A stretch of 63,221 nucleotides of DNA, the filler included, from Craspedostauros australis (taxonomy: Eukaryota), in assembly GCA_030167865.1 (NCBI GenBank). It is 10 parts of 10 records of this genome, joined end to end, with 100 filler letters (N's around TTAATTAATTAA, not from the genome) between each part and the next. Parts side by side here need not be neighbours in the genome. Positions count along the whole stretch, not along the records: positions 1 to 5,053 come from JALAGF010006717.1; 9 more parts are not named here. One strand, 5' to 3'. Shown one piece after another: positions 1-55,830 of the stretch. The notes below the pieces were generated by a model, which was not told the DNA's origin, searched no databases, and was given only the letters and a program-made list of their open reading frames with translations. The position numbers were made by a program, and so were the translations under genes. Within the stretch, counting starts at the first letter, position 1. Every line of letters starts with the position of its first letter.

Positions 1-1555
1 TGTCATGGTTCAGTTCGATGTTGCAGCTGAGGTAGTCTCCGAGTCCACGCTCGATTGTCACCTTGAATTTGCTGCCTTGGATGTACTTCAGGAATGTCTC
101 CAATGCCTTGGAGTCTCTGCAGCAGAAGCAATCGTTCACGTAGATGGCCACGATCATACTTCCTTCGTTCGTCTTCCTGTAGAACAGACACGGGTCTGCC
201 GCGCTCTGTTCGAAGTTGATATTCTTGAGGGTCGATACCAACATCTTGAACCATTGTCTGGCGCTCTGCACAAGTCCGTAGATTGGCTTGTGTAGGGTCA
301 GGGCTTCGTCTGGTTGATGATCCATCCCATTGGGACAGTTCATGTAGATCTCCTCGTCGAGGTCTCCATGTAGGAATGCCGGTACGACATCGACGAGTGC
401 GCAGTCCATCTTCTTGATCAGCATGATCACCATCATGACCCAATAGGTCACGTCATGGATGACGGGTGAGTAATGCTCTTGGAAGTCCACTCCTGCGACT
501 TGTGAATAGCCACATGCAACGAGCCGCGCTCGATGTGTGCCGTCGCGTTTCAGCTTGAAGACCCATTTGCACTTGCAGCATCTGCGGCCGCGTGGTATGG
601 CGTCTCGTTTGATCTTGCTGTACACCTTTCGTGTATCCATGGAGTCGAACTCCTTCTTGATGGCTGCTCGATATCCCTTTCGATGGATGGGATCTGGATG
701 ATTGAAGGCTCCATCAAATGTCGTTGGTTCGATGTGCTTCTCTGGTTTCTTGTTCTCGTCCTGCATCGACAGTCCGATGTCGATCGCTGGTGACTCAGTG
801 ATGATTGCGTTCATCCCGTATAGTCCTGTTGTGCTGTGATGAGTGATTTCGATCTCTTCTTCTCCGTCTACAATTTCTTCATCATCTGTAGTCTCATTGT
901 TGGATTCGTCGGATATCTCGTCGCTGAGTTCGTCACTCTCTTCGTTGGATGATGACTTGCTCTCATAGCCTTCCTCCTTTCGACCTCGTTCATTGAAGTC
1001 TGCGAGCTCACGCAGAGCTCTGGAAATACTCTTCCCTGTAGTTGGTTTGGGATTAGCTTCTCCCTTCCTGCCTCGTGCTTCATGACGTCGGATTCTCTCC
1101 TTTCTAGCTATGTCACGCTTGCTTGGTTTGCTTGGTGGAGGTCTCGATGGTGTGTCATGTGTAGACCTCGCTGGTGTGTTCGGAGGAGTGACGCCTGTAT
1201 CATCGTCGGCTTTGTCGCCAGATGGTGTGATCTCGTCATCCTCATGATTGGATTCTCTCCGATCTTCCTCGTCGTTATGGATTAGTTGAGTCACTACTCC
1301 ATCGTCCTCATCATCCTCATCATTGCTGTCCGATAGGATGTGATATTTGTTCGTGTCCGCGAAAGATACTCTCTTTGCTTCTGATGTTTGACGCATTGCC
1401 GTCTTTGGCATTGCTCCCTTCCGTCCAATGGTTGTGAAGCCGTCTGCGTCTGTCGTTCCTACTTTGCTGGATATGTTCGGTGCTGGTGCCCAGCCACGGA
1501 ACTGTCCATATGATTGGTTGAGCCACTTGATGTCGCGAGAGCAGACCAGTGACTT
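1..1555 (-). pseudogene. Degenerate Ty1/copia pol fragment (integrase-RT linker and RT N-terminus), copia family B
   Basis: Minus strand gives KCKWVFKLK, RARLVACGYSQVAGVDF, AFLHGD and YGLVQSARQW, with frameshifts. 1300-1555 is the reverse complement of 48374-48620. Homology stops abruptly at 1555. Confidence 0.9.
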
Positions 1556-1646
1556 TATCAGCACAAATACATATAGTGCAAATTACGTTACTCCCGTAGC
1601 CCCCACTATCTATAAATTTCACTTGTGTTCGGATCAGCAATCGCAA

Positions 1647-1715
1647 TGCCTGTAGCTCAACGGTAGAGCACCAGTAATTCTCACTGAGGTTCCGGGTTCG
1701 AATCCCGGCATGGTA
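1647..1715 (+). ncRNA. tRNA-like sequence / Pol III type-2 promoter cassette (pseudo-tRNA, nominal anticodon TTC)
   Basis: A box TAGCTCAACGGTAGAGC with D stem GCTC/GAGC. Anticodon arm CAGT-AATTCTC-ACTG. T arm CCGGG-TTCGAAT-CCCGG (perfect B box). Acceptor TGCC-TG/CATGGTA with a 1-nt bulge. TTTT at 1722-1725. The anticodon loop lacks the canonical Y32-U33. Confidence 0.8.
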
Positions 1716-2272
1716 CTTTGCTTTTGCTCTCCCCTCGTGATTTTTCGATCGTGCTCTTTCAGATTAACAGTCGCACTCGCTCCACACCTGTGTTGATCGA
1801 GTGAATATCCACTTCATCTGCTTCAAGCATCCTCAGCTACCCCACGTGACGACGTGACACTCTCTGCCCAGTCCTCTGTGCAGACACACTCTTCTGTTCG
1901 GATCCCACCGTTCAGCTCCCACCGTTCAGCTCCACTCGGCTTCGGCCCTCGCGCGCTCACCACACTCCAGACATCACAGTCCAAGTGTGTACACTCTCTC
2001 TTNNNNNNNNNNNNNNNNNNNNNNNNNNNNNNNNNNNNNNNNNNNNNNNNNNNNNNNNNNNNNNNNNNNNNNNNNNNNNNNNNNNNNNNNNNNNNNNNNN
2101 NNNNNNNNNNNNNNNNNNNNNNNNNNNNNNNNNNNNNNNNNNNNNNNNNNNNNNNNNNNNNNNNNNNNNNNNAAACACTCCGCCAACTACAACAAAACAA
2201 ACACAAAACAAACAATCTACATCACATCACATCAACCATCACCCAACACCCATCACCGAACGCTTTTCTACC

Positions 2273-5053
2273 ATGGCTACCAACACCAACGTCACCGACA
2301 TCAACGAGTACACCATACTCAACCACGTCTTGTCTACCATCGGCATTCAGGCCCATTCTTGGCAACGTCGCGCTCTCAACGAGGCCGGNNNNNNNNNNNN
2401 NNNNNNNNNNNNNNNNNNNNNNNNNNNNNNNNNNNNNNNNNNNNNNNNNNNNNNNNNNNNNNNNNNNNNNNNNNNNCCCATGAATGTGCTTGTTGTCAAC
2501 AAGATCCTCGCATTGGTACGCTGGATCAATCTCCAACCCCGATTGACTCCCGATGAATGGATGAGTGTCGACATGTACGACATCTCGCATCCATCCGTCA
2601 TCGGGACCGCGGGTCCCCGGACCCCGGCCAGCTACCATTCCTGAGGAGGTGTCGGCATCATTCCTCCCAGTACTCGCACTTGCCGTACTGTGGACGATGA
2701 TGAGGATATCGAATCTGTGTCCCCGCCTGACCGGGCCAGATTTGCTACTCCAGTGACCAACCCTTCGGCACGCGTTGCAACAGCGGAAACTCCAATCGCT
2801 GCTGCTCCTGTGCCAAGTGTTGCATTCTCTCCGTCGAGCGCTCTCCCAGAGTCGTTCACCAAGGAGTTCAGCCGTGGTGTTAAGCGTGAGGCCCTCGCAT
2901 TCCCCACCCTGAAGGACAACAAGCATTTCCTTTCATTCCGGCGCCAATTCGAAGCGATTGCGTATACTCATGGACTTGAGTATCACATCGATCCTTCGTG
3001 GGAGCCGGGTCCATCGGACATGTTGTTCTACAACATGCAGAACAGGTACTTGTACTCTGTTCTGAGCCTTCATGTCAAGACTTTGCGTGGCGACCAACTC
3101 CTTCGCAAGCATCAAGCGAGCAAGGACGGTCGCGCTGTCTATCAAAGTCTCATTGAGATTTACACCAATGGTGTCAACGGTGAGAGCGCGGCAATGGCAC
3201 TTCATGCTCGCATCGCCTCCTTCACCTTGGATAACAGCTGGAAGAAGAACCGTGAGAACTTCGTGGACACCTGGCAGGGAATCATCTCCGATATCGAAGA
3301 TATGGAAGATGACGCCTTGCCGGACAACACGAAGAAGACATGGCTGCATAACTCGATTGCTCCGGACAAGGATCTTCTGAATGCTCTCACGAGCACATCC
3401 TACGTCCGTGACGAGATGCTTGCGGCCATGCCCTCCGGTTTCGAGATCAAGGCAGCTGGATTCGACCATCATCTCAACTCGGTTCGGATCCATGCTCAAC
3501 GCCTCGATTCCTCTCATCCTCGTCAGGTTCAAAAGCGTAATGTCAACAACGCTACGACCGGCAAGGGAAAGGGTGGTTCTTCGGGCAAGTCTCCTGCCAA
3601 AGGCAATGGCAAGACTTACACCAACGACAAGCGTACCCGCATTCCGAATGAGGAATGGGCAACCATGTCTTGGGCCCAGAAGAAGGACTACATGCACAAC
3701 AACCCCTCCTGTAGTGCTGGCAAGGGCGACACCTCGCGTGCCGCTAATAAAGCCAAGTCCTCAGGCAACTCTTCGTCCACCCCGGCGACCAACGCTCCCG
3801 CTTCCTCCGGCGCTGGCAGCAATGCGGATTCAAAGGGCGGTCCTCCGGGATCTGCTATCAACCGCATGCTCGCGCAGGCTCGTCAGTCTGGTCAATCGAC
3901 CGCTGACTTCGTCGATTCTGAGGGCGGGGCGTGGCGACGGGTGAATTCTACCGTGGTCCGATACAACTTCGAGACCTCAGTGGAGACGAAGACGGGTGCG
4001 CTCGTCGACAGTGGCGCCAATGGCGGCCTCGCTGGCGACGACGTGCTAGTTCTGTGCAAGACGGGCACCATGGCGGACGTGAGCGGCATTGGTGATTCCA
4101 CCATTGCGAGCCTGGACATTGGTATGGTCGCGGCCCTGCTTCACACGAGCAGTGGCCCGATCATCGCCAAGTTCCACCAGTACGCTCTATACGGGAAGGG
4201 CAAGTCCATCCACTCTACCAACCAGCTCTCCGCGTTCGGTATGGATGTGAATGAACGCCCACGTGGACTCCCTGGTGGTCGGCAAACTGTCGTCACACCT
4301 GAGGGGCACGTCATCCCTCTGTCCATTCGTGCTGGCTTGTCCTACATGGACATGCGCCCGCCGACCCCTGCTGAGATGGATCGGTACCCTCATGTGGACT
4401 TCACGTCCGATGATGTCTGGGACCCTTCCATCCTCGATCAGGAGTTTGGTCTTGATGATGTCCGTGCTCTTGCGGACGATGATGATGATGGTTCCGCGCT
4501 CGCCAACCTCGATCGCCTGCATGTATATGCGGCATCGACGGATGAGGCGCGCGGCAACGTACCGCATTCCGGGTCCGCTGGCAACTCCGGTTCCGTTCGT
4601 GTTCGCAGCTCGCCCATCGACTATGAGGCGCTGCGCCCGCACTTCGGCTGGATCCCTGCTCGTCGGATCAAGGACACTCTCGGCTGCACTTCCCAGTGGT
4701 ACCGCACTTTGGAGCGATTCGCGATGCGCAAGCATTTCCGCACTCGTTTTCCGGCGGCCAACGTCGATTGTCTTCATGAGACAGTCGCGATGGACACTTT
4801 CTTCTCTGATACACCCGCTCATGATGACGGTGTCCCTGGCCATGGTGGCTGCACCATGATCCAGGTGTTCGTTGCGCTCGACTCTCGGTACACATCGGGA
4901 TTCCCGATGGCGTCCGAGTGGCAGGTCGCGGACTCCTTGCTCGACTTCATTCGTCGGCATGGAGCGCCCGACCTACTAATGTCGGACAACGCGAAATCAG
5001 AGGTGGGATTCAAAGTGCAAGACATCCTGCGTCAATACGCAATCAAGGATCAC
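2273..5053 (+). CDS. Copia (CoDi-like) gag-protease-integrase polyprotein, one in-frame TGA at 2642-2644, 3' truncated
   Basis: ATG at 2273 (MATNTNV) is in the same frame as ORF 2690..5101. Gag core (FLSFRRQFEAIAYTHGL...DGRAVYQSL), protease LVDSGANGG, integrase ETVAMDTFF...LMSDNAKSE. Confidence 0.85.
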
Positions 5054-5097
5054 NNNNNNNNNNNNNNNNNNNNNNNNNNNNNNNNNNNNNNNNNNNN

Positions 5098-5923: not shown

Positions 5924-7073
5924 TCACCTTCCATGGTATATACCCCAATGGTCTTTACAAATATGGACTCTACACAAGCTGTAGATCCGTTTAACCCTCT
6001 TGGGAGTGTTTTCTTCTAGGCCTGTATTTTTTGTGGCCTTCAAGTAGCAGCAATATTGGCAAAGTCGTTGCTTTCCATCTTCGTCGATTATCTGTCTGTG
6101 GTCTTTATCCCTTAATGGACCAGCCATAAAGGATCTGTCAGATCCATTATAAAGCCTCCGTGTTAAATTTCTACGGCTTTTTCCTACCATGTCCTACGTA
6201 TGAAAACTAGTTCTGTACCTGTATCTAAACTGGATTTTAGACTGTAATGGTCAGCTCACTTTCGTCAGAGTTGATTGTACTCTCATCATCCTTCCCATGA
6301 AATACATTCCAGTGCAGCTTACAGACATGGATTCCACACACACTGCACATCCTTCTGACTCTGCTTGGTTCATGTGCTGGCCTCCCTTCGAGCTTTGCTT
6401 TTGCTTTAAGATAAGAACAGTATCTACAAGTCCTCTGGCTTCCGTCCCTGCTGATGATCTCCTTGTGATCTTCGAATCTCCCCTCCAACCTCGATCTGGG
6501 CAGCTTTGGAGAGCAGGGGCTCATCCGATTCCTTGTTCGAATGGTGTGTGGGACTCTCTGGTGGCTTGCCCTTGTTGCCATCAAATCTGTTTCATTCCCT
6601 TTGCGGACCAGAGTCTCAATCATCTTGATCATGAATGCCTTGCTCCCCAATCAATCTTGCTCTCTTGCCAGGTGATTGAATGCAATCCAAGTATTGACGC
6701 ACATGATGTCCAACAAGTGGAACATGAGGGGCATCCATACTCTCCAAGCCCTCAAGTCAGGGCAATAATATGCAATGAGTTGGTTGCATTTGTCAACTTC
6801 AAGCATCCACTGATTGTAGTCATCAATCATCTTCTGAATTTGGATGTGTGCAAAGTACTTGCTCCCCCAGACCATCTCCAAGTGCCCTGCATTCACCTTG
6901 TTCTTTCTTGGCTTGTGGCAATTGCAAAGGACCGACTCGTTCCCATGGTGCACCACACTTACCATCAACACCACATTGTTGTCAATCCACCTGGCCACCA
7001 TGTACTGATTGTTCTCAATCCAGACATAGAGCGAGTTGAAGCGCATGCCCTCAACCTCCTTCACCTCTATGCT
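5924..7073 (-). pseudogene. piggyBac-like transposase C-terminal remnant with two tandem Cys-rich (CRD) modules
   Basis: WIDNNVVLMVS...IDDYNQWM-EVDKCNQLIAYY...WMPLMFHLLDIMCVNTWI matches the DDE_Tnp_1_7 C-terminal pattern. CRD1 is CRYC...CSVC-IHVC-LHWNVFH; CRD2 is CQYC...SLCRVHICKDHWGIYH. In-frame TGA at 6651-6653. Confidence 0.8.
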
Positions 7074-7365
7074 TGTCGAGATGTACATGTGAGTATATGT
7101 CGAGATGTACGTGTATATGTGCATCATTCACCTGTTATTCTCTTATGCATGTTCGGACGGTAAAACTACATTCGTGTCAATAGAATGCTGTGATTTGTCA
7201 GAATCACAGTGGAAATGGAACACACAAAAATGAGCAGACTTTCTGGAGGAAATTTGCAATCAACAGTTTCTGAGAGAATCAGGAACATCGTCTGTCCATC
7301 CATCAATGGAAACGTATGGTACCAAGAGAATCTCAAGGTACTTCCCAACTAAACCTCAGATGACA
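7074..7365 (+). mobile_element. LTR family A, solo LTR (~292 bp)
   Basis: Starts TGTCGAGA, ends TGACA and interrupts the piggyBac relic. An inverted homolog lies at 9893-10129. Confidence 0.7.
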
Positions 7366-7369
7366 ATAT

Positions 7370-8012
7370 CATCTGACAGACTGCTGCATCACCAATGGAN
7401 NNNNNNNNNNNNNNNNNNNNNNNNNNNNNNNNNNNNNNNNNNNNNNNNNGAACATGACATCTGGAGAGCAGAAGGACGCCTACTGACGTCAACAGGATGT
7501 CATCATGTCACCACGTCGACATCTGTCTCCAAGCCAGAGCAGGAGGCAAAGATCCGATGACCGAAGGGCATCAGGATCATGGATACAGGAGATGAACTTC
7601 AAATGGTAAGTACTCATGGAGTAGGAGCCAGTACTGAATGAACGGAGTGTTGAATGCGGAATACGCATCGAGCACGGAGTATCGTGTAGCACGAAGCACA
7701 CGATGCTGAGACAAAGAAAGAGAGAGAATACAGAGAGGAGCGAGAGAGCATCTCGCGTACCAACTCATAGTCGGAGACCAAATCTACGAAACAGATTGAA
7801 GAGCCAAGAGCATCAGGGAAGAGAACAGGCGTACACCGAGAGGATTGGAGTAGCCAAGTAATGAAATAGCAAACGAACGACTATCAACCAATACCACCCT
7901 CCACGATCGTAGGTTACCAATCACGGAACTTGCCAACACACGATCGTAGGCTTCCGTGAGCGGAACTTGCCAACACACGATTGTAGGCTTCCGTGAGCGG
8001 AACTTGCCAACA
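7370..8012 (+). mobile_element. LTR family B fragment with triplicated 37-bp terminus
   Basis: Homologous to 48885-49257 and to the reverse complement of 52343-52855. Ends GGAACTTGCCAACA three times. Confidence 0.85.
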
Positions 8013-14782: not shown

Positions 14783-15640
14783 ATGCCGAATGTTACGAAC
14801 GAACAACTCCTTGGTGCTGCCGAGGCAGGTGACTTGTGGGTGTTGGAGGAATGGAAGAAGCAGAACCAGATACAGAATGAAGAAGTTGATGTCAACAAGG
14901 TTACAAACGAGATTGGTTGGACTCCCCTTCATTGGGCATGCATTGAGGGCCACCTGGAGTGTGTGGAGTACCTCATCAAATCATGTGGGGCTGACGTCAA
15001 CTGCAAAGACGACTTTGGTTCCACTCCCCTTCATGACGCATGCCACTACGGCCAGCTGGAGTGTGTGAAGTACCTCATCGAATCATGTGAGGCGAACATC
15101 AACTGCAAAGGCAACGATGGTTCCACTCCCCTTCATTGGGCATGCCACTACGGCCAGCTGGAGTGTGTGGTGTACCTCATCGAATCATGTGAGGCGAACG
15201 TCAACTGCCAAGACAGCGATGGTGACACTCCCCTTCATGACGCATGCCGCAACGGCCACCTGGAGTGTGTGGAGTATCTCATCAGATCATGTGGGGCTGA
15301 CGTCAACTGCAACAACGACAATGGTGAAACTCCCCTTCATGTGGCATGTCACAACGGCCACTTGGAGTGTATGGAGTCCCTCATTAGAGGACTTTCGCCT
15401 TCAGCTCACCCACAATTGCAACAACTGCAACAATGCTTACAACAAAACGAACAAGCAAATGAACAGCCACAAGAACAGTTGAGACAGCAGTTGAAGCGAA
15501 AGAGCCAAGAGAATGAACACAAGCACAGTAGCCACAAGAGGACCAACGTCAGCATTGGAGAAGACCGACTCAATCCTTCTAAACTGGGAACAGGACAGAC
15601 ACCATCTTCTTGTGTGGACAGGGCGACTAACAGCAACTAA
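14783..15640 (+). CDS. Ankyrin-repeat protein copy 1 (N-cap + 5 repeats + Gln-rich coiled linker)
   Basis: Five GxTPLHxAC...GHLECV motifs at a 34-aa (102-bp) period. Confidence 0.9.
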   Translation: MPNVTNEQLLGAAEAGDLWVLEEWKKQNQIQNEEVDVNKVTNEIGWTPLHWACIEGHLECVEYLIKSCGADVNCKDDFGSTPLHDACHYGQLECVKYLIESCEANINCKGNDGSTPLHWACHYGQLECVVYLIESCEANVNCQDSDGDTPLHDACRNGHLECVEYLIRSCGADVNCNNDNGETPLHVACHNGHLECMESLIRGLSPSAHPQLQQLQQCLQQNEQANEQPQEQLRQQLKRKSQENEHKHSSHKRTNVSIGEDRLNPSKLGTGQTPSSCVDRATNSN

Positions 15641-22486: not shown

Positions 22487-23287
22487 ATGCCGAATGTTAC
22501 GAACAAACAACTCATTGATGCTGCCAAGGCTGGTGACTTGTCAGTGTTGAAGGAATGGAAGAGGCAGAACGAGGCACAGAATGAAGGAGATGGTGTCGAC
22601 AATGTCACAGACTGGATTGGTCGCACTCCCCTTCATTGGGCGTGCTATTCTGGCCACTTGGAGTGTGCCAAGTACCTCATCGAATCATGTGAGGCGGACA
22701 TCAACTGCAAAACCAACCAAGGTCGCACTCCCCTTCATCAGGCATGCTACAACGGCCACCTGGAGTGTGTTGTGTACCTCATCGAATCATGTGAGGCGGA
22801 CATCAACTGCAAAAACAACTATGGTTCCACTCCCCTTCATCGGGCATGCACGCGTGGCCACCTGGAGTGTGTCAAGTACCTCATCGAATCATGTGAGGCG
22901 GACATCAACTGCAAAGACAACGATGGTTACACTCCCCTTCATCTGGCATGCTACAACGGCCACCTGGAGTGTGTCAAGTACCTCATCGAATCATGTGGGG
23001 CGAACATCAACTGCCAAAACAACCGAGGTGAAACTCCCCTTCATTGGGCATGCTCCAAGGGCCACCTGGAGTGTATGGAGTCCCTCATTAGAGGACTTTC
23101 ACCTTCAGTTCACTCACAACTGCAACAACTGCAGCAACACTTACAACAAAACGAACAAGCAAATGAACAACCACAAGAACAGTTGAGACAGCAGTTGAAG
23201 CGAAAGAGCCAAGAGAATGAACACAAACACAGCAGCAACAAGAGGACCAACGTCAGCATTGGAGAAGACCGACTCAAATCCTCCTAA
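22487..23287 (+). CDS. Ankyrin-repeat protein copy 2 (N-cap + 5 repeats + Gln-rich linker)
   Basis: Five TPLHxAC motifs. Ends at a TAA that is in frame with the downstream BTB sequence. Confidence 0.9.
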   Translation: MPNVTNKQLIDAAKAGDLSVLKEWKRQNEAQNEGDGVDNVTDWIGRTPLHWACYSGHLECAKYLIESCEADINCKTNQGRTPLHQACYNGHLECVVYLIESCEADINCKNNYGSTPLHRACTRGHLECVKYLIESCEADINCKDNDGYTPLHLACYNGHLECVKYLIESCGANINCQNNRGETPLHWACSKGHLECMESLIRGLSPSVHSQLQQLQQHLQQNEQANEQPQEQLRQQLKRKSQENEHKHSSNKRTNVSIGEDRLKSS

Positions 23288-27850: not shown

Positions 27851-30259
27851 GAAGATATCTGACACAAAGCCACTGCAACTCACACCAAAGAAAGCGGTCA
27901 GGAACAAGAGCGCGTCTCAGTGCCGCCATCCCTTGATGAATGGTACCAACACTCACACCCCGTGATGCATCACGACATGATGGGATGGAATAAGATGAGA
28001 TGGATGGGCCGCTCCGTATTTGTATCATGCTCATAGAGGTATGGTAGACTCACGTCGCTGTAATGTAATGCACCTACAAATAGACTGTACTTCTCTACGT
28101 ATGCTTGGAACAGTACCGCATGCACTATATCTGCTTGTGCAATAGAACGCTGTGATGAAGTCACCGGATGTTTCAAGAGATTGAAGGGCTGGATACTGCT
28201 CTCACACTGCCTCCACCTTGTGTACGACGAGTCTGGTCCGCTCTCTGCGGTACAAACGCACACAGGGATGTTGTCGATGTCATTCACGAGCAGATTGGAC
28301 ATCTGTGGTTCCATCCGCACTCTGCCATGAGCATCGTTGTTGGTTCGTTGCACAGACAATGGACGCATGGCAGCAGCATTTTCACAAGCTGTGCGGTCGT
28401 CGCAGTGCGGTCGTCACCGTGCCACCGGATTCACACACAGAGCACTCTCCACTCCAAGTCACACACTGCCAAGCCGATTCAAAGCTACAGTGCCGATGCC
28501 AGCCGATCCAAGTTTGTGGAAGAGACGATCTACGAAGAGCACATGGCGAACAAGGCAGAGAGAAATGGTGAGAAGCCGCGAGGAGCATGGTTGCTGCGCG
28601 ATTCCATCGACCGTCCCGTATCACGCTATTGTCCTCATCTCTCCATGAGTTGCGTTCCCACCATTGTGCCAACACTGCAGCTGAGACCCTCGCCAAGTCC
28701 CAGGAGGAGTGATCACTCGCCGTTGGAGCAACAAATGCCAGGGTCACCATTCATTCCAATCTTCGAAGCGAGCAGTGCCAGCGTGGCGGAAAGACAAGAA
28801 CCGACGAGACAGCGCAGTCCAAGCATCCTGAGAGCTTGACGAGCAAAAGAAGACACCAACCAACGAACCAACCAACGAGCAACCCCATGCAGAGTGCGAG
28901 TGCCGTATTGCGGATCATGGTTGACACAGAGTTTTCGTATGGTACAAGAAGCACACGGTCAGCAATCCATGGCCCATGGATACCGTATCTCCACATGTCC
29001 TCCTTCGTGGTGCTCCCAACTTCGTTGATGAGACGGATGTTCCTGTCGATCACCTCGGTTGGGCATCGATGCTCTGGAAGTCACGAGCCAAGACGGCGGC
29101 GCTCGTGCCTGTGGATAGAACGTGCATGGTATTGTATGTTGGTGGTCCATGCAGCAGGAACAGTGGAGGCGGCACGGTATCGCTCCGCCTGTTGATTGCT
29201 GAAGGTGCCAACCCATCCCAATACGCAATGGGGTGTTGGTTGGATGTTGAGGACTCTTGTTGCCTGTGCGGATGGTGATGGTTGCAATGCGGTGGGATGG
29301 CAACCAGCCAAATCCAAATGAGGTGGGTCGCGACCAACGAAGGCAACCAACAAAGGCAACCAACAAACGCAGTCACATCAGTGGCTTCATCGTTGTTCGA
29401 GGCATTGGTTCGAACCTCAAGTTGGTGCTTGTGATGACAGGCGGGCAATCGTGTCTTGCAGATGCCACGATAACACAAGCAAGCGTGGGTCATGGTGTAC
29501 ATGGTGGTGGTGATGGCAGCTCCCTCTGTCTCTCTGTATCTCTGTGTATCTGCATCCAAAGACTTCCGTGTTGTTTGTTTCAAATTGTTGTGGTGTTGAT
29601 TGTGACTGAAGTCGAGTTGTTGGAGGCAGACTCAAGACCGAAAGACCGTTCAGACCAATGGAAACACCCAACGACCATTTCGAACCACTTGGGTATGACC
29701 ATCAACAATCTTTCGCATTCGTTGTGCTTCGACAGATGTCAACACAGTCATTGATCTTCTTCGGTGATCTGACTCATAGTCGTATCAGTCGAAGATTCTC
29801 GTTTTCGACAATGCCACACAACAGAACCCTGTTGTTGTCAGAACCCTCTGTTGTCTTCCTTCTTGTTGTTGTTCATGTACTACTAGTCGTAGAAGTAGTA
29901 GTACATACTCGTGATGGATGGGAACAGGAGGATCCAAGCCGCACGAACCAGAGAGGGGTGCGATCAAGAGAAGGAGGCAAACACGACGATGCTTGTGCGC
30001 AACGAGAGAAAGAGAGGACACGTGCGAACAAGACAACAACACACTCGAGCACATCAACAACAGACATCGAATTGCCACTCATTGTCATCACAACGTGAAT
30101 AGTACTCATCCTAATACAAGCTATTGAAGACACCACGATCGACATCTCTGCCATAGGTAGCTCAGACGACACATTTCCTCGACAGCCAATCCAACGCCCA
30201 TCGTTCAACGTTCAACGTCCAACGTCAATCGTCCAGCAACCATCGACCATCCTCTCAGA

Positions 30260-31432
30260 ATGCCGAATGTTACGAACGAACAACTCCTTGGTGCTGCCAA
30301 CAGAGGCGACTTGTCGGTGTTGAAGGAATGGAAGAAGCAGAATGAAGGAGTTGACATCAACCGCCAAGACATGTTTGGTCACACTCCCCTTCATGGCGCA
30401 TGCAACAATGGCCACCTGGAGTGTGTGGAGTACCTCATCAAATCATGTGGGGCTGACGTCAACTGCAAAGGCATGTTTGGTTACACTCCCCTTCATGGCG
30501 CATGCAACAATGGCCACCTGGAGCGTGTGGAGTACCTCATCAAATCATGCGGGGCTGACGTCAACTGCAAAGACGACTTTGGTTACACTCCCCTTCATCA
30601 GGCATGCAACAATGGCCACCTGGAGCGTGTGAAGTACCTCATCAAATCATGTGGGGCTGACGTCAACTGCAAAGGCATGTTTGGTCGCACTCCCCTTCAT
30701 CAGGCATGCAACAATGGCCACCTGGAGCGTGTGAAGTACCTCATCAAATCATGTGGGGCTGACGTCAACTGCAAAGACGACTTTGGTTACACTCCCCTTC
30801 ATCAGGCATGCAACAATGGCCACCTGGAGCGTGTGGAGTACCTCATCAAATCATGTGGGGCTGACGTCAACTGCAAAGGCATGTTTGGTTACACTCCCCT
30901 TCATGGCGCATGCAACAATGGCCAGCTGGAGCGTGTGGAGTACCTCATCAAATCATGCGGGGCTGACGTCAACTGCAAAGACGGTAAAGGCTCCACTCCC
31001 CTTCATGGCGCATGCAACAATGGCCAGCTGGAGCGTGTGGAGTACCTCATCAGATCATGTGGGGCTGACGTCAACTGCAAAGACGGTGAAGGCTCCACTC
31101 CCCTTCATAAGGCATGCGCCAACGGCAAGCTGGAGTGTATCGAGTCCCTCATTAGAGGACTTTCGCCTTCAGCTCACCCACAATTGCAACAACTGCAACA
31201 ACACTTACAACAAAACGAACAAGGAAATGAACAACCACAAGCACAGTTGAGACAGCAGTTGAAACGAAAGAGCCAAGAGAATGAACACAAGCACAGCAGC
31301 CACAAGAGGATCAACGTCAGCATTGGAGAAGACCGACTCAATCCTTCTAAACTGGGAACAGGACAGACACCATCTTCTTGTGTGGACAGGGCAACTAACA
31401 GCAACCAATCAAGACAAACGCCGAAGTCCTGA
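30260..31432 (+). CDS. Ankyrin-repeat protein copy 3 (N-cap + 8 repeats + Gln-rich linker)
   Basis: Eight near-identical 102-bp repeats. Confidence 0.9.
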   Translation: MPNVTNEQLLGAANRGDLSVLKEWKKQNEGVDINRQDMFGHTPLHGACNNGHLECVEYLIKSCGADVNCKGMFGYTPLHGACNNGHLERVEYLIKSCGADVNCKDDFGYTPLHQACNNGHLERVKYLIKSCGADVNCKGMFGRTPLHQACNNGHLERVKYLIKSCGADVNCKDDFGYTPLHQACNNGHLERVEYLIKSCGADVNCKGMFGYTPLHGACNNGQLERVEYLIKSCGADVNCKDGKGSTPLHGACNNGQLERVEYLIRSCGADVNCKDGEGSTPLHKACANGKLECIESLIRGLSPSAHPQLQQLQQHLQQNEQGNEQPQAQLRQQLKRKSQENEHKHSSHKRINVSIGEDRLNPSKLGTGQTPSSCVDRATNSNQSRQTPKS

Positions 31433-44719: not shown

Positions 44720-47700
44720 AGGAGGACTACAATGCCTGGGAGTCCCAAGCGAAGGCGTACATGCGTGCGCAGAGAACAAGAGATGTGATGTTGGGGAAGA
44801 CGAAGATCCCAACCAAGAGCGAAATCGGAGCTGCCACAGAAACAGACAAGGAAGTATTGGAGGAGACCTACGAGCTGGCAGCCGACTGCTTCAGCGATCT
44901 GATCCTCATGATGGATGCAGAGAAGGGTACAGGCAAGCAAGCCATCCAATACAACAACCAATGCATCTCCGACATATTCCCTGAGGGGAACCCACACGAG
45001 GTGTGGAAACCTCTCACGGAGAAGTACAAGCCATCCGACGCCGCCACCAAGCTCAAGCTCAAGAGGCAGTTCAACAACGAGAAGATGAAGAAGGACACTG
45101 ATTCAGATGTCTACATCACATGGCTCAAGCTACTGCACTCCTGCCTTCAAGACATCGGGCACGAGATCAGCAACAAGGAAATGATCATGCAGATCCTCAG
45201 CACAGTGAGTGCCAAGTACAAAGCTCAAGTCATCAACTTCGAACATCAACTCACATTCAGCCCAACTGTTGTCACAGTCAACACAATCAGAGCACTACTT
45301 CGCACAGCATACACAACCAACCAAGGAGGGAAGGCCTACATCAACGAATTTCAAGACAGCAGCATGAAGACTAACAACGCTGGCTTCACGAGCACCAGCA
45401 ACTTCAAGGGAATCTGCCACAACTGTGGTGTGTATGGTCATCGATCTGCGAATTGTCCCGAACGGAAGAAGGCAAACAACAAGAAAAACGCCAACAACAA
45501 CAGAAAGAACGGAAACCGAAACAATAAAGGCAAGGGAAGCAGATTCAACGGAAAGTGCCACTACTGCGGCATCATCGGACATCGCGAGGTAGAGTGCCGA
45601 AAGAAGAAGTTCAACAAAAAGAAGAAGGCCAACAAGCAGGCCAACACAGCGAAGGAAAGACATGAGAAGAGCGGCCATGAGATGATGCTCTCTATTCTGG
45701 ACATGATGCTCTGCTTGGAGGTATCCGACGACATCAAGGATTCATTCTTCGATCACTTCCAACACTTCGAAAACGATGACGAAGTACACGACGACGAGGT
45801 CGTGCCAGCGTGGCTCAGCGACGAGCCAATCATCCATGAAGTCGACCGACGTCGCGAAGTCAGTTAAAAGTACTGCTTCAATGTGAACAACATCATTGAT
45901 CTGTCCGGCGACGCAGCTGAGATGGGAGCAGAGACCATCGCCATCGAGTTGGAAGCGGCCGCGAACGCAGACGATGCCGACACCAACAAGAACAGCGCGG
46001 ATCAAGACAACAAAGACGTCTCTGGCGACAAGACAAACGGCGGTGAGGCGCCTCCTCCTCCAGTGGCAAGGAACAACAGAATGGGTATCTTCCACAAAGA
46101 CAGCAGCGATGAATCAGAACAAGAAGTGGACAGATTCAATCCAAACAAGAGAGTCATCTATCCAACAGACATCTCGTTCCCACCAGTCCAGNNNNNNNNN
46201 NNNNNNNNNNNNNNNNNNNNNNNNNNNNNNNNNNNNNNNNNACAGGCATGATACGATCCCATATCCTACATTGACAGTAGAGACAATGCAACGACAGCTC
46301 ATCCACGACGCCGTGATGGTAGCAGACATGCGTCTCTTCCCAGGGATGATCAACGGGGGACTGCAACATGTATGGGTGCGCGTGATTGGCACCATACTGT
46401 CCGACAATTTCCGATCAATCGAAGAGATTCTCGCCAACACAGTGATGCTCAACCGGCTGTTGGAGGAAAGACNAGCTCATTCCAGAGACGGAATTGCACT
46501 ACGTCCTTGGAGGATGTATGCAGGTACTCCTGCGCGAGCGACCACAAGTCACGCCATACGATTCGGTGACAGGAACTCACCGAGAAGACATGACTCCAGC
46601 AGTCGGAGAACCATACTATGACGGCATGGACTACCACAGGATGGACGACGGGAACAAAGAAGATCACGACAACGACATGGCAGCAGCTGCCATGGAACAG
46701 CTTCACGAGCTGAGCACCAAATACAAGGACAAGGTCAACGAGAATACCTGGCTTGCCGACAGCAGAGCCTTGTGTCACATCATGAACTCAGACGCCGGCC
46801 TCTTCAACGTGCGGCACATCAAGTCCTTCGTCCAAGTGGGAGACAGCACGAAGCTGGACTCTCCCAAGATTGGATCCATCCGCTTGAAGGTCAAGCAACA
46901 TGACAACACTTGCCACATTATCCAGCTCAATAATGTGAAGTACACACTCAAGATGGTGGTGAACCTTTTCTCTACAAACAAGGCACTATACAACAGTTAC
47001 CAGATTGGAAACAATGGCATTCTGATGGACATTGTCAACAGAGCTGGGAAGAAGATCATCTTCAATCGCATCTTCCCACCATCTAACAGATTCATCACAG
47101 GAGTGCAGATGCATCCCATCATGCCAACTGAGGATGACAAGGCTTCCACAGCCATCATCAAGAGCCCATCCAAGGAGGTGAGCGCAGTGAACTTGCATCG
47201 AATGCTCCGCCACGCACCGCTTGAGACCATGAAGCAGACAGCCGCTCAATACGAATGGAAGATCATCGGCGAGATGCTGGTGTGTCGCGACTGTGCTGTC
47301 GCAAATGCGAGAGTGAAGAACATCTCAAAGACTAGAATCCCAAGAGCGACTTGCCGTGGCGAACGCCTCTTCATCGATATCAGTTACACTAAACACATAG
47401 GCTTCGGAGATAAACGCTACTGGACCTTGATCGTGGACGGCTTCACGGACTACTGCTGGAGCTTCTTTCTGAAGAACAAGAGGGACCAACCAGGGTATCA
47501 AACGATTCGTGCAGACAATCAAGTCACACACAGGTGATCAACAAATCATTTTCCAAGGCGATAACAGCGGAGAGAACAAATCCACGCAGGATACTCTCAT
47601 CGATGCAGGACTGAATGCGAAATTCGAGTTCATGGCGTCCAACACGCCACAGCGGAATGGCAGAGTAGAACGCAAGTTTGCGTATCTCTACACTAAGATC

Positions 47701-48784
47701 CGTTCCATGCTCAACGGAGCACAACTCAACAACAAATAGAGGCATGGCCTGTGGGCAGCAGCTGCAAGCACTGCCACTNNNNNNNNNNNNNNNNNNNNNN
47801 NNNNNNNNNNNNNNNNNNNNNNNNNNNNCCTTGATCGTGGACGGCTTCACGGACTACTGCTGGAGCTTCTTTCTGAAGAACAAGAGGGACCAACCAGGGT
47901 ATCAAACGATTCGTGCAGACAATCAAGTCACACACAGGTGATCAACAAATCATTTTCCAAGGCGATAACAGCGGAGAGAACAAATCCACGCAGGATACTC
48001 TCATCGATGCAGGACTGAATGCGAAATTCGAGTTCATGGCGTCCAACACGCCANNNNNNNNNNNNNNNNNNNNNNNNNNNNNNNNNNNNNNNNNNNNNNN
48101 NNNNNNNNNNNNNCTCAACGGAGCACAACTCAACAACAAATAGAGGCATGGCCTGTGGGCAGCAGCTGCAAGCACTGCCACTGCCATCGCCAATTCTTTG
48201 ACAGCAATCCACCATACACCAATTCACTTCGAACATTCGGAGAGGTGGTTGTTGTGAAGACCACCTATGGCGGGATCTCCGCCAAGCTCAAGAATAGAGG
48301 AGAAGAGATGGTGTTCATCGGATATGCACACCAACATGCATCAGGAGTGTACAACATGTACAGACCATCGACCAAGTCACTGGTCTGTTCCTGTGACATC
48401 AAATAGCTCAACCAATCACACGGATAGTTCTGTGGCTGGGCACAAGCACCAAACACACTCAACGATTCAGAAATGACGAACGCAGATAGCTTCACAACCA
48501 TTGAACGGAAGGGAGCAACGCCAAGGACGGCAATGCGTCAAACGACAGAACCAAGGAGAGTATCCTTTGCCAACACGAACAAGTATCACATCCTATCGGA
48601 CAGCGATGATGAGGACGAGGAAGCAGCGACCCAACTGCTCGAGAACGAGGAAGATCGGAGCGAGTCCGCCCTGAGGATGACGAGATCCTACCATCCGGCA
48701 ACGAAGCCGACGATGACAAGGGCATCACTCCTCTGAACACACCAGCGAGGCCTGCGCGTGGTACACCATCAAGACCTCCACCAA
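44720..48784 (+). pseudogene. Degenerate copia family-B gag-PR-IN
   Basis: Two CCHC knuckles (CHNCGVYGHRSANC, CHYCGIIGHREVEC), WLADSRALCH, LFIDIS and TPQRNGRVERKF, with several stops and frameshifts. Homologous to 49258-52260. Confidence 0.92.
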
Positions 48785-48884: not shown

Positions 48885-49257
48885 GAAGGGCATCAGCATC
48901 ATGGATACGAAAGGTGAACTTCAAATGGCGAGTACTCATGGAGTAGGAGCCAGTACTGAATGAACGGAATGTCGAATACGAAGTACGTATTGAACACGGA
49001 GTATCGTGTGCGACGAGTACATGATGTTGAGAGAGAGAGAGAGAGAATACAGAGAAGAGCGAGAGAGCATCTCGCGTACCGACTCATAGTCGGANNNNNN
49101 NNNNNNNNNNNNNNNNNNNNNNNNNNNNNNNNNNNNNNNNNNNNNNNNNNNNNNNNNNNNNNNNNNGAGTAGCCAAGTAATGAAATAGCAAACGAACGAC
49201 TATCAACCAACACCATCTTCCACGATCGTAGGTTACCGTGCGCGGAACTTGCCAACA
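48885..49257 (+). mobile_element. LTR family B, inserted into a family-B element in opposite orientation
   Basis: Ends GGAACTTGCCAACA directly against the codons for HRMLGHA (integrase Zn finger) on the minus strand. Confidence 0.85.
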
Positions 49258-52260: not shown

Positions 52261-52342
52261 TCGGCCTGCGGCTCTTGAATGATGTTCGTCTTCCTCGCAC
52301 GATCCGATCCACGGGCTCGCCCTGATCTATCGTTTGTAAACG

Positions 52343-52855
52343 TGTTAGCAAGTTCCGTGATTGGTAACCTACGATCGTGGAAGATGGTGTTGGTTGATAG
52401 TCGTTCGTTTGCTATTTCATTAGTTGGTTACTCCGATCCTCTCGGTGTACACCAGTTCTCTTGCCCGATGCTCTCGGTGCTTCAATCTGTTTCGTAGATT
52501 CGGTCTCCGACTATGAGTCGGTATGCAAGATGCTCTCTCGCTCCTCTCTGTATTCTCTCTCTCTCTCTCAACATCGTGTGCTCGTCCCACACGATACTCC
52601 GTGCTCGATGCGTACTCCGCATTCGACACTCCGTTCATTCACTACTGGCTCCTACTCCATGAGTACTTACCATTTGAACTTCACCTTCTGTATCCACGAT
52701 GCTGATGTCCTTCGGTCATCGGATCTTCGCCTCCTGCTCTGACTTGGAGACAGATGTTGACATGGTGACATGATGACATCCTGTTGACGTCAGTAGGCGT
52801 CCTTCTGCTCTCCAGATGTCACATTCCATTGGTGATGCAGGAGTCTGTCAGATGG
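52343..52855 (-). mobile_element. LTR family B, 5' LTR of the element above (outer boundary not resolved)
   Basis: Ends ...GGAACTTGCTAACA ~82 bp before the gag ATG. Homologous to 7370-7938. Contains a (GA)n tract. Confidence 0.85.
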
Positions 52856-53645
52856 AGGAATGAAGAGTGAGGAAGAAACAGGCAAGCGAGCTCGCGAGCA
52901 GTATCCCAATCAGACACACAGGAAAAAATGCAAGAACAGCGACCAGCAACTACGAGATGAAGTGACACAGACACAACAAGATTCCAATGGAGATGGAGAT
53001 GAAGGCTTCAAAATGCCATGAGCAACCTGTGGGCGGAAGTGTCGGAGAGGTATGTGAATAATTTGTCAGTTGAGTGGACTAGAATGCGTGTCCTGTGCGC
53101 GAAGTTCGCCCGAGTTACCCCAGGTCGTGTCCGTGTGTGAACCGATTCACCTCAGAGAACAAGATCATGCGAGTGAAGGAGAATATGCCAGGAGATGACA
53201 CAGGCAGCGACGAAATGAGGGTTGGACACAACCATGGTACCAACTACGATGGTCTCGCATTAACTCGACACTCTCTAAGCGCATATTATCAGGGTCCGTC
53301 GGGCGTGCTTCTTTTTAATCGACCATCACTTGATTGTGTGGTTTTATATTTCCCCCGCAGCTTCTGAGGGTGGCTGAACGACAAAAACAGAGCGTGCCGT
53401 GCCTGTGTTTGGGCTGAATCCTTTCCGGTCGGAGTAGTATCGCATAGAGCAAAAACCGTGTTGTTTCCACGCAGTGGGGTGTCATGTTTGCGTTGGGGTC
53501 TGTTTTTTTGTGATTTTGGCCCCCCCTGAGAGGCTCGAAACCTTCCTTGTTCGGAAGGTCCTTCCTTGTAAGGAAGAATCGGCCTTTTCTGACCCCCTGA
53601 TCTTCCTTGTTCGGAAGGTGCACTAAGAACACCGTGAAACAAAAC

Positions 53646-55830
53646 TCACCATGGATATGATTCGAGGAGGTACTTCACACACTTCAGGTGGCCATGGCAG
53701 CATGCGTCATGAAAGGGAGTGTTTCCATCGTTGTTTTGGCAGTTGATGTTTGCCCCACATGTATTGATGAGGTACTTCACACGCTCCAAGTGGCCGTTGT
53801 GGCATGCGTGATGAAGGAGAGTGTTTCCCTTGTTGTTTTGGCAGTTGATGTAGGCGCCACATGATTCAATGAGGTACTCCACACACTCCAGGTGGCCGTT
53901 GAAGCCTGCCACATGAAGGGGAGTGTTTCCATTGTTGTTTTGGCAGTTGATGTTTGCCCCACATGTATTGATGAGGTACTTCACACGCTCCAAGTGGCCG
54001 TTGTGGCATGCGTGATGAAGGGGAGTGTTTCCCTTGTTGTTTTGGCAGTTGATGTTTGCCTCACATGATTCAATGAGGTACTCCACACACTCCAGGTGGC
54101 CGTTGTGGCATGCCACATGAAGGGGAGTGTTTCCATTGTTGNNNNNNNNNNNNNNNNNNNNNNNNNNNNNNNNNNNNNNNNNNNNNNNNNNCCTCACATG
54201 ATTCAATGAGGTACTCCACACACTCCAGGTGGCCGTTGTGGCATGCCACATGAAGGGGAGTGTTTCCATTGTTGTTTTGGCAGTTGATGTTTGCCCCACA
54301 TGTATTGATGAGGTACTTCACACGCTCCAAGTGGCCGTTGTGGCATGCGTGATGAAGGGGAGTGTTTCCCTTGTTGTTTTGGCAGTTGATGTTTGCCTCA
54401 CATGATTCAATGAGGTACTCCACACACTCCAGGTGGCCGTTGTGGCATGCCACATGAAGGGGAGTGTTTCCATTGTTGTCTTCGCAGTTGATGTTCGCCC
54501 CACATGATTCGATGAGGTACTTGACACACTCCAGGTGGCCGTTCCAGCATGCCAGATGAAGGGGAGTGTCACCATCGTTGTCTTTGCAGTTGATGTCCGC
54601 CTCACATGATTCGATGAGGTACTTCACACACTTGAGGTGGCCGTTGTGGCATGCCACATGAAGGGGAGTGGAGCCATTGTTGGCTTTGCAGTTGATGTTC
54701 GCCCCGCATGATTCGATGAGGTACTTCACACACTCCAGCTGGCCATGGCAGCACGCTGAGTGGAGGGGAGTGTTTCTATTGTTGTCTTTGCAGTTGATGG
54801 TTACCTCACATGATTCGATGAGGTACTTCACACACTTGAGGTGGCCGTTGTGGCATGCGTGATGAAGGGGAGTGGAGCCATTGTTGGCTTTGCAGTTGAT
54901 GTTTGCCTCACATGATTCGATGAGGTACTTGACACACTCCAGGTGGCTGTTCCAGCATGCCACATGAAGGGGAGTGTCACCATCGTTGTCTTTGCAGTTG
55001 ATGTCCGCCTCACATGATTCGATGAGGTACTCTACACACTTGAGGTGGCCGTTGTGGCATGCGTGATGAAGGGGAGTGTTGCCATCGCTGTCTTCGCGGT
55101 TGATGTTCGCCTCGCGTGATTTGATGAGGTACTTCACACACTCCAGGTGGCCACGAAAGCATGCCCGATGAAGGGGTGTGTTTCCATTGTTGTCTTCACA
55201 GTTGATGTTGCCCTCACATGATTCGATGAGGTACTTGACACACTGCAGATTGCCGTTATTGCATGCGTCATGAAGGGGAGTCCAACCATTGTTGTCTTTG
55301 CAGTTGATGTTCGCCCCACATGATTTGATGAGATACTCGATACACTTCAGATGGCCGTTCATGCATGCATAATGAAGGGGAGTGGAGCCAGCATTGTCTT
55401 CGCAGTTGATGTCAGCTCCACATGATTTGATGAGGTACTTGATACACTCCAGGTAGCCGTTATTGCATGCGTCATGAAGGGGAGTCCAACCATCGTTGTC
55501 TTTGCAGTTGATGTTCGCCTCACATGATTTGATGAGATACTCGATACACTTCAGATGGCTGTTCATGCATGCATAATGAAGGGGAGTAGAGCCAGCGTTG
55601 TCTTCGCAGTTGATGGCAGCTCCACATGATTTGATGAGGTACTTGATACACTCCAGGTGGCCGTTGGAGCATGCCTCATGAAGGGGAGTGCGACCAAACC
55701 AGTCTGTAACCTTGTTGGCATCAACCCGTTTTTTCTTGCTCTTCTTGTTGTGCTTCTTCCATTTCTTCAACACCGACAAGTAACCTTCTTTGGCAGCATC
55801 AAGTAGTTGTCTGTGCGTAACATTCGGCAT
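53646..55830 (-). CDS. Ankyrin-repeat protein copy 4 (15 repeats before the gap + 5 after), lacking the Gln linker and BTB
   Basis: Same MPNVT start and upstream sequence (to 55938) as copies 1-3. The array ends mid-repeat at ~53657 against unrelated DNA. The repeat count is uncertain across gap 54142-54191. Confidence 0.9.

Follow-up and report, generated by a model that had tools for sequence, protein, structure and literature searches.

A 206-bp LTR with an acquired tRNA-like unit probably forms the 5' end of a coding copia retrotransposon in a diatom-like genome. The LTR (TATCAGC...TTTCA) occupies 1556-1761 (+) of the window, by which the whole analysed stretch of 63,221 nucleotides is meant, and the tRNA-derived, non-decoding, cloverleaf-like segment, recognised through an Rfam tRNA match, lies inside it at 1646-1716 (+). 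To date, the only retrotransposons described with a tRNA-like unit in an LTR are tiny, non-coding ones from fungi, animals and one plant, and promoters of small-RNA genes are known in the LTRs of non-coding miniature elements alone, namely Cassandra, Helenus and Ajax. The general idea of a tRNA-like LTR is already published for TRIMs, in the case of Helenus (PMC10886601), and in the literature searched beyond that report (Kojima 2024), neither autonomous nor diatom elements were found to have such an LTR.

The window is a gap-rich eukaryote draft with 55 N runs and 51% G+C, and the element appears to have inserted into an older copia element. To its left, positions 2-1555 (-) hold another copia-type fragment comprising the post-integrase region and the start of RT, truncated at 1555 by the insertion; its ORF (2..1564, -) matches RVT_2 at E 9e-38. 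This fragment is 81% identical to 48374-48784, a copia copy that runs on into integrase-coding sequence, and the homology stops exactly at 1555. This break indicates that something interrupted the left-hand copia at 1555/1556, so that the insertion junction placed at 1556 in the preliminary description is real. The continuation of the interrupted copia was not detected on the right by tblastx or blastn. Furthermore, no other copy of 1556-2002, and thus no LTR pair, was found in the window by blastn at word size 7. A reading of the insertion as a MITE with TIRs was discarded, the sequence having no terminal inverted repeats of note.

Both edges of the LTR can be placed. The left edge coincides with the homology break at 1555/1556, and the same start is preceded by a PPT followed by TATCAGCAC in a contig of an independent run, designated X1. 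On the right, the terminal CA (1760-1761) stands directly before the conserved PBS GATTAACAGTCG (1762-1773, +). The conservation of this site was assessed in 15 metagenomic loci encoding relatives of P0001, the 803-aa main part of the downstream frame, seven of which hold too little upstream sequence for a PBS. The 14-mer CAGATTAACAGTCG, which corresponds to 1760-1773, occurs once in each of the remaining eight, on the gene strand and 606-729 nt upstream of the protein match; it is therefore present in 8/8 loci that reach far enough upstream. In the window, this site has one exact and one single-mismatch match, against 0.24 expected. As GATTAACAGTCG is conserved upstream of gag in all loci reaching it, it is taken to be the PBS of the lineage.

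In the relatives, the order of elements is pol stop, PPT (A[AG]AGGGGAG), an LTR beginning TGTCA[AG]C, its terminal CA, and GATTAACAGTCG. The composite motif A[AG]AGGGGAG-TGTCA[AG]C was found in seven loci, twice in L004, and the LTRs so delimited measure 470-533 bp. The start of the window LTR, TATCAGC, resembles the TGTCAGC and TGTCAAC of these relatives. The layout of an LTR followed by a PBS, together with the PPT seen in the relatives and in the X1 contig, is that of Ty1/copia elements. The PPT and PBS motifs of the lineage should also be useful for annotating such elements. In seven of the relatives' contigs (L001-L005, L009, L011), pol stop, PPT, one LTR, PBS and gag follow one another, and the contig ends repeat coding sequence; in L004, two PPT motifs lie 6471 nt apart. 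These contigs are explained either by tandem arrays in which single LTRs are shared, by circles with one LTR or by a collapse in the assembly. Their terminal direct repeats were considered as LTR pairs and rejected, since they are coding sequence and the contigs are permuted circles or tandem copies.

The complement of the PBS contains CTGTTAA, which has the form of a 7-nt anticodon loop with the anticodon GTT. By the genetic code, an anticodon-type loop CUGUUAA, to which the PBS is complementary, would suit tRNA-Asn(GUU). By inspection, the PBS complement is absent from 1646-1716. The suggestion that the tRNA-like piece might itself serve in priming is therefore abandoned, the PBS being complementary to a different loop sequence. 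An iMet-type PBS (TGGTAG...) behind 1763 in an X1 contig was also dropped, given that the conserved PBS is known and that this sequence is more simply explained as flank.

Further copies of the LTR were recovered from X1, which is one small public run available as contigs only and shares few words (0.04) with 1300-2002, no RNA data set being listed alongside it; copy number and expression cannot be read from contigs of this kind. Twelve X1 contigs match 1573-1775, five of them at 99% or more and five at 95-99%, with no X1 cover over 1300-1572 and 1776-2002. In record 1, the sequence corresponding to 1573-1705 differs at 6 of 133 nt and is continuous into the tRNA-like part. Upstream it reads ...GTAGGGGAG and then TATCAGCAC, that is, a PPT of the lineage's type and the LTR start; the full upstream string, ...TAGCGTAGGGGAG TATCAGCACAAA..., has the same LTR start as that at 1556. 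Record 8 extends through the PBS to 1775 and then enters a different leader, and record 6 departs from the LTR at 1763, with unrelated sequence beyond, so that at least two further contexts of the LTR exist.

These copies bear on the possibility that a host tRNA gene or pseudogene merely stood beside the insertion, or that a SINE landed in a single LTR copy after integration. tRNA genes are targets of many retrotransposons, and ARAGORN rejects the segment as a tRNA. However, the segment sits between the LTR start and the LTR end with its PBS, the X1 copy behind the PPT reads without a break from the LTR start into the tRNA-like part as far as 1705, and the repeat has its start 90 nt before the 5' end of the tRNA-like part, unlike a SINE. 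An LTR found behind a PPT, before a PBS and beside other DNA speaks decisively against either event, and this explanation is regarded as very improbable. Two circumstances that had been named as fatal to the idea are thereby contradicted: the tRNA-like piece is not a one-off insertion, as other X1 copies carry the LTR with the segment, and the element does not start downstream of 1725 next to a host tRNA. The proposal that the segment lies within the LTR is upheld from both sides, by the conserved PBS on the right and by the same LTR start behind a PPT in X1.

The tRNA-like segment itself combines well-preserved and decayed parts. The Rfam tRNA model RF00005 matches 1651-1710 at 35 bits (gathering score 29), with E = 0.0013 when the whole window is scanned and 1.3e-05 for a stretch of 601 bases, and no other Rfam match in the window reaches the gathering level. 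Model positions 6-65 of 71 are aligned, which leaves the acceptor stem unmatched; within the aligned part, the D and T arms are perfect, and the anticodon stem has 4 bp and one mismatch. The D arm is GCTC/GAGC and the T arm CCGGG-TTCGAAT-CCCGG. A canonical tRNA anticodon loop has U33 and a purine at 37. The loop of 1646-1716 is AATTCTC and has neither. The acceptor stem forms six pairs only, with T1711 bulged, and is mismatched. With default settings, ARAGORN reported no tRNA at 1646-1716, and at a lowered threshold it gave odd calls only. The segment thus lacks the 7-bp acceptor stem, the canonical loop and the tRNA-finder call of a functional tRNA gene, and it no longer decodes, its acceptor stem being bulged and mismatched and its anticodon loop odd. 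The features listed in the preliminary description (TATAAAT, A and B boxes, bulged acceptor, odd loop and T-runs) were all located at their given positions, and the covariance-model check proposed there gave the Rfam match just described.

Folding of the 71-mer placed the one-bulge cloverleaf at -18.2 kcal/mol, against a minimum free energy of -18.6 kcal/mol. In the wider 91-nt region, the stability was no greater than that of shuffled sequence (z -0.16). Identities of 75-78%, across 83-92% of the segment, were found to phage genes for tRNA-Met, Ile and Asn; with all three isotypes matching at this level, the naming of a parent isotype was dropped. Exact-pattern scans for the odd anticodon arm gave no matches in metagenome, viral and genome contig collections. 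The leader motif ACCGTTCAGCT, present twice at 1907-1931, is complementary to the D arm (1654-1664) at 10 of 11 positions, which is no better than other chance pairs in the same list.

Promoter-type motifs were located by matching patterns that we take to be the A-box and B-box consensus sequences. The A-box-like motif TAGCTCAACGG lies at 1653-1663 (+) and the B-box-like motif GGTTCGAATCC at 1695-1705 (+); both boxes are canonical and stand at tRNA spacing. The B-box pattern GGTTCGANTCC has a single match in the window, counting both strands, at 1695, and the looser A-box pattern TRGCNNANNGG has ten matches, one of them at 1653. In addition, two T-runs inside the LTR, TTTT at 1722-1725 (+) and TTTTT at 1741-1745 (+), are candidate Pol III terminators, the first beginning 6 nt past the end of the tRNA-like segment.

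The TATAAAT at 1611-1617 (+) had been attributed to the tRNA cassette. From its start to the LTR end, 151 nt are counted in the window LTR. The corresponding distance, measured from the start of TATATTTT, is 150 nt in both L001 and L011, and for L004 and L005 it is 140-141 nt; the TATA-like motif of L009 lies 112 nt from the LTR end, and the LTR of L003 contains no TATA-like motif by the pattern used. Because the distance to the LTR end is conserved in relatives (151 nt vs 150, 150, 140 and 141), the motif probably belongs to the element's own LTR, as its TATA box, and the attribution to the cassette is the less likely one. Most simply, the tRNA-like segment would then replace LTR sequence without lengthening the LTR, and would begin about where Pol II would start.

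The acquisition appears to be specific to one family. Among the 15 related loci, no tRNA match reached the gathering score, and in the seven of them that were scanned at E<=1, there was again no tRNA match, the three matches at that level being of miRNA families and all in L004. In the LTR alignment, the relatives have unrelated but mutually conserved sequence at the position of the tRNA-like segment. The absence of the piece from the relatives' LTRs marks it as a family-specific acquisition: as read from these sequences, one family of the lineage acquired a tRNA-gene-derived segment between the TATA box and the LTR end.

Such an acquisition need not have any function. A tRNA pseudogene or the head of a SINE may have entered the LTR of a master copy on a single occasion and been tolerated there, with no Pol III activity of consequence, and this inert-passenger explanation is a serious one, to which somewhat less than an even chance is given. 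It agrees with the absence of the segment from all related LTRs examined, with the decay of the acceptor stem and anticodon loop and with the lack of a structural stability signal; by inspection, the two differences at 1646-1647 in another copy restore no pairing. Moreover, Kojima's conclusion for Helenus is that most of the tRNA-like parts do not encode a functional RNA (PMC10886601). On the other hand, decay elsewhere in the segment contrasts with perfect D and T arms and two perfect boxes, and the LTR kept spreading with the segment, as several variant X1 contigs attest. Intact A and B boxes are, however, also expected in a young inert passenger. The spacing from the TATA box to the LTR end is still about 150 nt, although 71 nt are tRNA-like, which suggests replacement under a length constraint rather than plain insertion.

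Downstream of the PBS, a G-poor leader (1774-2272, +), delimited by composition and repeats, contains a 14-nt tandem repeat at 1896-1923 and the N gap at 2003-2172. The relatives' leaders are pyrimidine-rich with short tandem repeats and cannot be aligned to it; that of L001 (301-625), for example, has many short tandem units and small inverted repeats such as GGATAG..CTATCC. A tandem-repeat leader may be an architecture common to the window element and its relatives. The gag-protease-integrase frame follows at 2273-5053 (+), with its ATG at 2273 and an N gap at 2389-2476, and ends at the gap after 5053, the RT not being in the window. An in-frame TGA (2642-2644) separates the first ~120 gag codons from the 803-codon frame; the window copy may be defective, or the TGA base call may be wrong. 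Comparison of the second N-terminal gag piece with the relatives gave no significant matches.

The identity of this frame was established through its homologues. P0001 matches no Pfam family at E<=0.01 and has a sub-threshold rve (integrase core) match at residues 731-801 (E 0.044). It has 4159 relatives in a representative library, the best at 39% identity, and 19 of 19 longer homologues (1445-2702 aa) carry PF07727, the copia-type RT domain. In the full-length homologue P0004, which covers 95% of P0001, RVT_2 lies at 1377-1592, downstream of the aligned part. Since the full-length homologues carry a copia-type RT domain, the downstream frame is most probably the gag-protease-integrase part of a copia element. 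The named relatives are from the diatoms Epithemia and Entomoneis, and the earlier assignment of the element to the copia type is supported. It is from these named relatives that the diatom provenance derives.

Whether the LTR and this frame form one element is the point at which Helenus (TRIMp3), the closest kind known, has to be considered. As described by Kojima (2024; PMC10886601), Helenus elements are non-coding TRIMs of 311-1263 bp with LTRs of 120-323 bp, which contain tRNA-like sequence with conserved A and B boxes and are mostly non-functional as tRNAs. In fungi they are mobilised by copia elements, and most fungal Helenus elements and their copia partners have a PBS against the anticodon-loop region; a SINE is proposed as donor of the tRNA-like part. 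The underlying screen kept only elements below 1000 bp and reported them from fungi, animals and Selaginella (PMC10886601); the paper contains neither the word 'diatom' nor 'stramenopile'. The window LTR shares with Helenus the tRNA-derived sequence with an A box (TRGCY..YGG) at 1653 and a B box (GGTTC) at 1695, the short length (206 bp), the non-functional tRNA part and an anticodon-loop-type PBS. As copia-type elements are the partners of Helenus in fungi, so a copia-type ORF follows the LTR here. Unlike in Helenus, however, LTR and PBS precede, across an N gap, a gag-protease-integrase ORF. Helenus has the layout LTR-PBS-PPT-LTR, with a short non-coding internal part, within less than ~1.3 kb, and a target-site duplication of 4-5 bp. 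Here the PBS is present, the window holds no second LTR, and a PPT with an LTR is seen only in the X1 contig.

The LTR and PBS could accordingly be those of a Helenus-type TRIM or of an internally deleted derivative, parasitic on this copia lineage and sharing its PBS and PPT, with the gag ORF a separate entity brought alongside by nesting or scaffolding. This alternative is considered unlikely, though it has several observations in its favour. At 206 bp, the LTR is within the TRIM range and less than half the 470-533 bp of its relatives; the N gap at 2003-2172, the main source of uncertainty, falls between PBS and gag; in X1 record 8, another leader follows the same LTR end and PBS; and Kojima (2024) holds that LTRs of Pol III type should not be found in autonomous partners as well (PMC10886601). 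A parasitic TRIM would, moreover, share the PBS of the lineage. Duplicated contig ends are also found round other gaps in the assembly: identical (100%) stretches of the window flank N gaps at 47425-47649 and 47829-48053 and at 47710-47778 and 48114-48182, and look like unmerged overlapping contig ends, for which reason gap sizes and the local order of the scaffold are unreliable. Against these points, the succession of LTR, PBS, ~500 nt of G-poor leader and gag ATG has the order, strand and spacing of one element. Furthermore, the assembled sequence flanking the gap, left and right, shows no second LTR, 2173-2272 being unlike the LTR end, and CoDi LTRs down to 153 bp are reported in the CoDi paper (PMC2806351). 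The order, the strand and the shared PBS suggest that LTR and gag are contiguous across the N gap at 2003-2172. A single coding copia element beginning with this LTR, and continuing into the conserved PBS, leader and gag, therefore remains the preferred reading.

How such an LTR might work can be outlined from the arrangement of its signals. The TATA box would drive Pol II genomic RNA from about 1641-1648, which would place the start of this RNA at or close to the tRNA-like fold. With its A and B boxes, each LTR would be a potential TFIIIC/Pol III site, and the Pol III unit would be predicted to yield an RNA of ~80-100 nt ending at 1722-1725 or 1741-1745. Pol III itself would be unable to supply genomic RNA, because the T-runs precede the PBS. 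At each retrotransposition the module would be copied to both LTRs and would in this manner spread as an LTR-borne, tRNA-like Pol III site, much as Helenus/TRIMp3 elements do, though in this case on an element that encodes proteins. The fuller proposal, that an autonomous diatom copia exchanged the R/U5 start of its LTR for a tRNA-derived unit placed one TATA-to-start distance downstream of its own TATA box, is possible but on balance doubtful, and is put forward tentatively.

Other known systems resemble the window element in part. As summarised in PMC10886601, Cassandra TRIMs carry a 5S rRNA-derived Pol III domain in their LTRs. Like the window LTR, Cassandra LTRs (both of them, in that case) thus contain a Pol III promoter and terminator of small-RNA-gene origin. 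In Cassandra, however, the domain is of 5S type and the elements are confined to plants and non-coding, whereas the domain here is of tRNA type; and a Pol III transcript running from LTR to LTR, as given there for Cassandra, is unlikely here, with T-runs before the PBS. For the CoDi copia elements of diatoms (Maumus et al. 2009), the report gives LTRs of 153-844 bp and three of 26 families without TG...CA ends (PMC2806351). The 206-bp LTR is within this range, and its TA start fits the families without TG...CA ends; the word 'tRNA' has no occurrence in the main text of that paper. SINEs of tRNA origin (SINE2) likewise have a tRNA-derived head with an internal Pol III promoter, and a SINE is a possible donor of the segment. 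Unlike SINE2, the repeat starts at 1556, at an LTR terminus preceded by a PPT and 90 nt before the tRNA-like part, and ends in CA and a PBS, without a LINE-type tail.

The significance of the LTR depends on which of these readings applies. If LTR and gag are contiguous, the window holds a coding copia element with a TRIMp3-type LTR; if the LTR belongs to a TRIM, it extends Helenus to a new host group. A diatom copia that encodes proteins and has such an LTR would make a natural intermediate or helper for miniature elements, and it would show that an autonomous element can combine a tRNA-type Pol III unit with its Pol II promoter. Diatom genomes would also gain from it scattered tRNA-like sites of the TFIIIC type, with consequences for tRNA gene prediction and possibly for chromatin boundaries. 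Should the replacement of R/U5 be true, a tRNA-like fold would stand at the start of the genomic RNA, each LTR would be a site for both Pol II and Pol III (TFIIIC), and the element would be a coding counterpart, possibly a progenitor or helper, of Helenus-type TRIMs. This would contradict the expectation on the LTRs of autonomous partners expressed in PMC10886601.

Several other repeats occur in the window. Beyond the gap at 5054, the sequence is unrelated to the copia-type ORF, and a piggyBac-type transposase fragment (6654-7127, -; DDE_Tnp_1_7, E 3e-10) lies just past the gap that cuts this ORF. Non-coding repeats 87-92% alike (7455-7939 vs 52342-52821, on opposite strands; 7563-7775 vs 48885-49094) are common to the flanks of other copia copies in the window and are probably the LTRs of a second copia family; the Rfam scan of the window gave no tRNA-like match in these presumed LTRs. 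In addition, 102-nt repeats in long arrays encode ankyrin repeats (Ank families, E down to 1e-177), at 53549-55715 (-) and at 14788-15416, 22492-23120 and 30250-31184 (+). The ankyrin arrays sit in a unit of ~7.5-8 kb that is present three times between ~14.7 and 33 kb, with a start-to-start spacing of about 7.4-8.1 kb.
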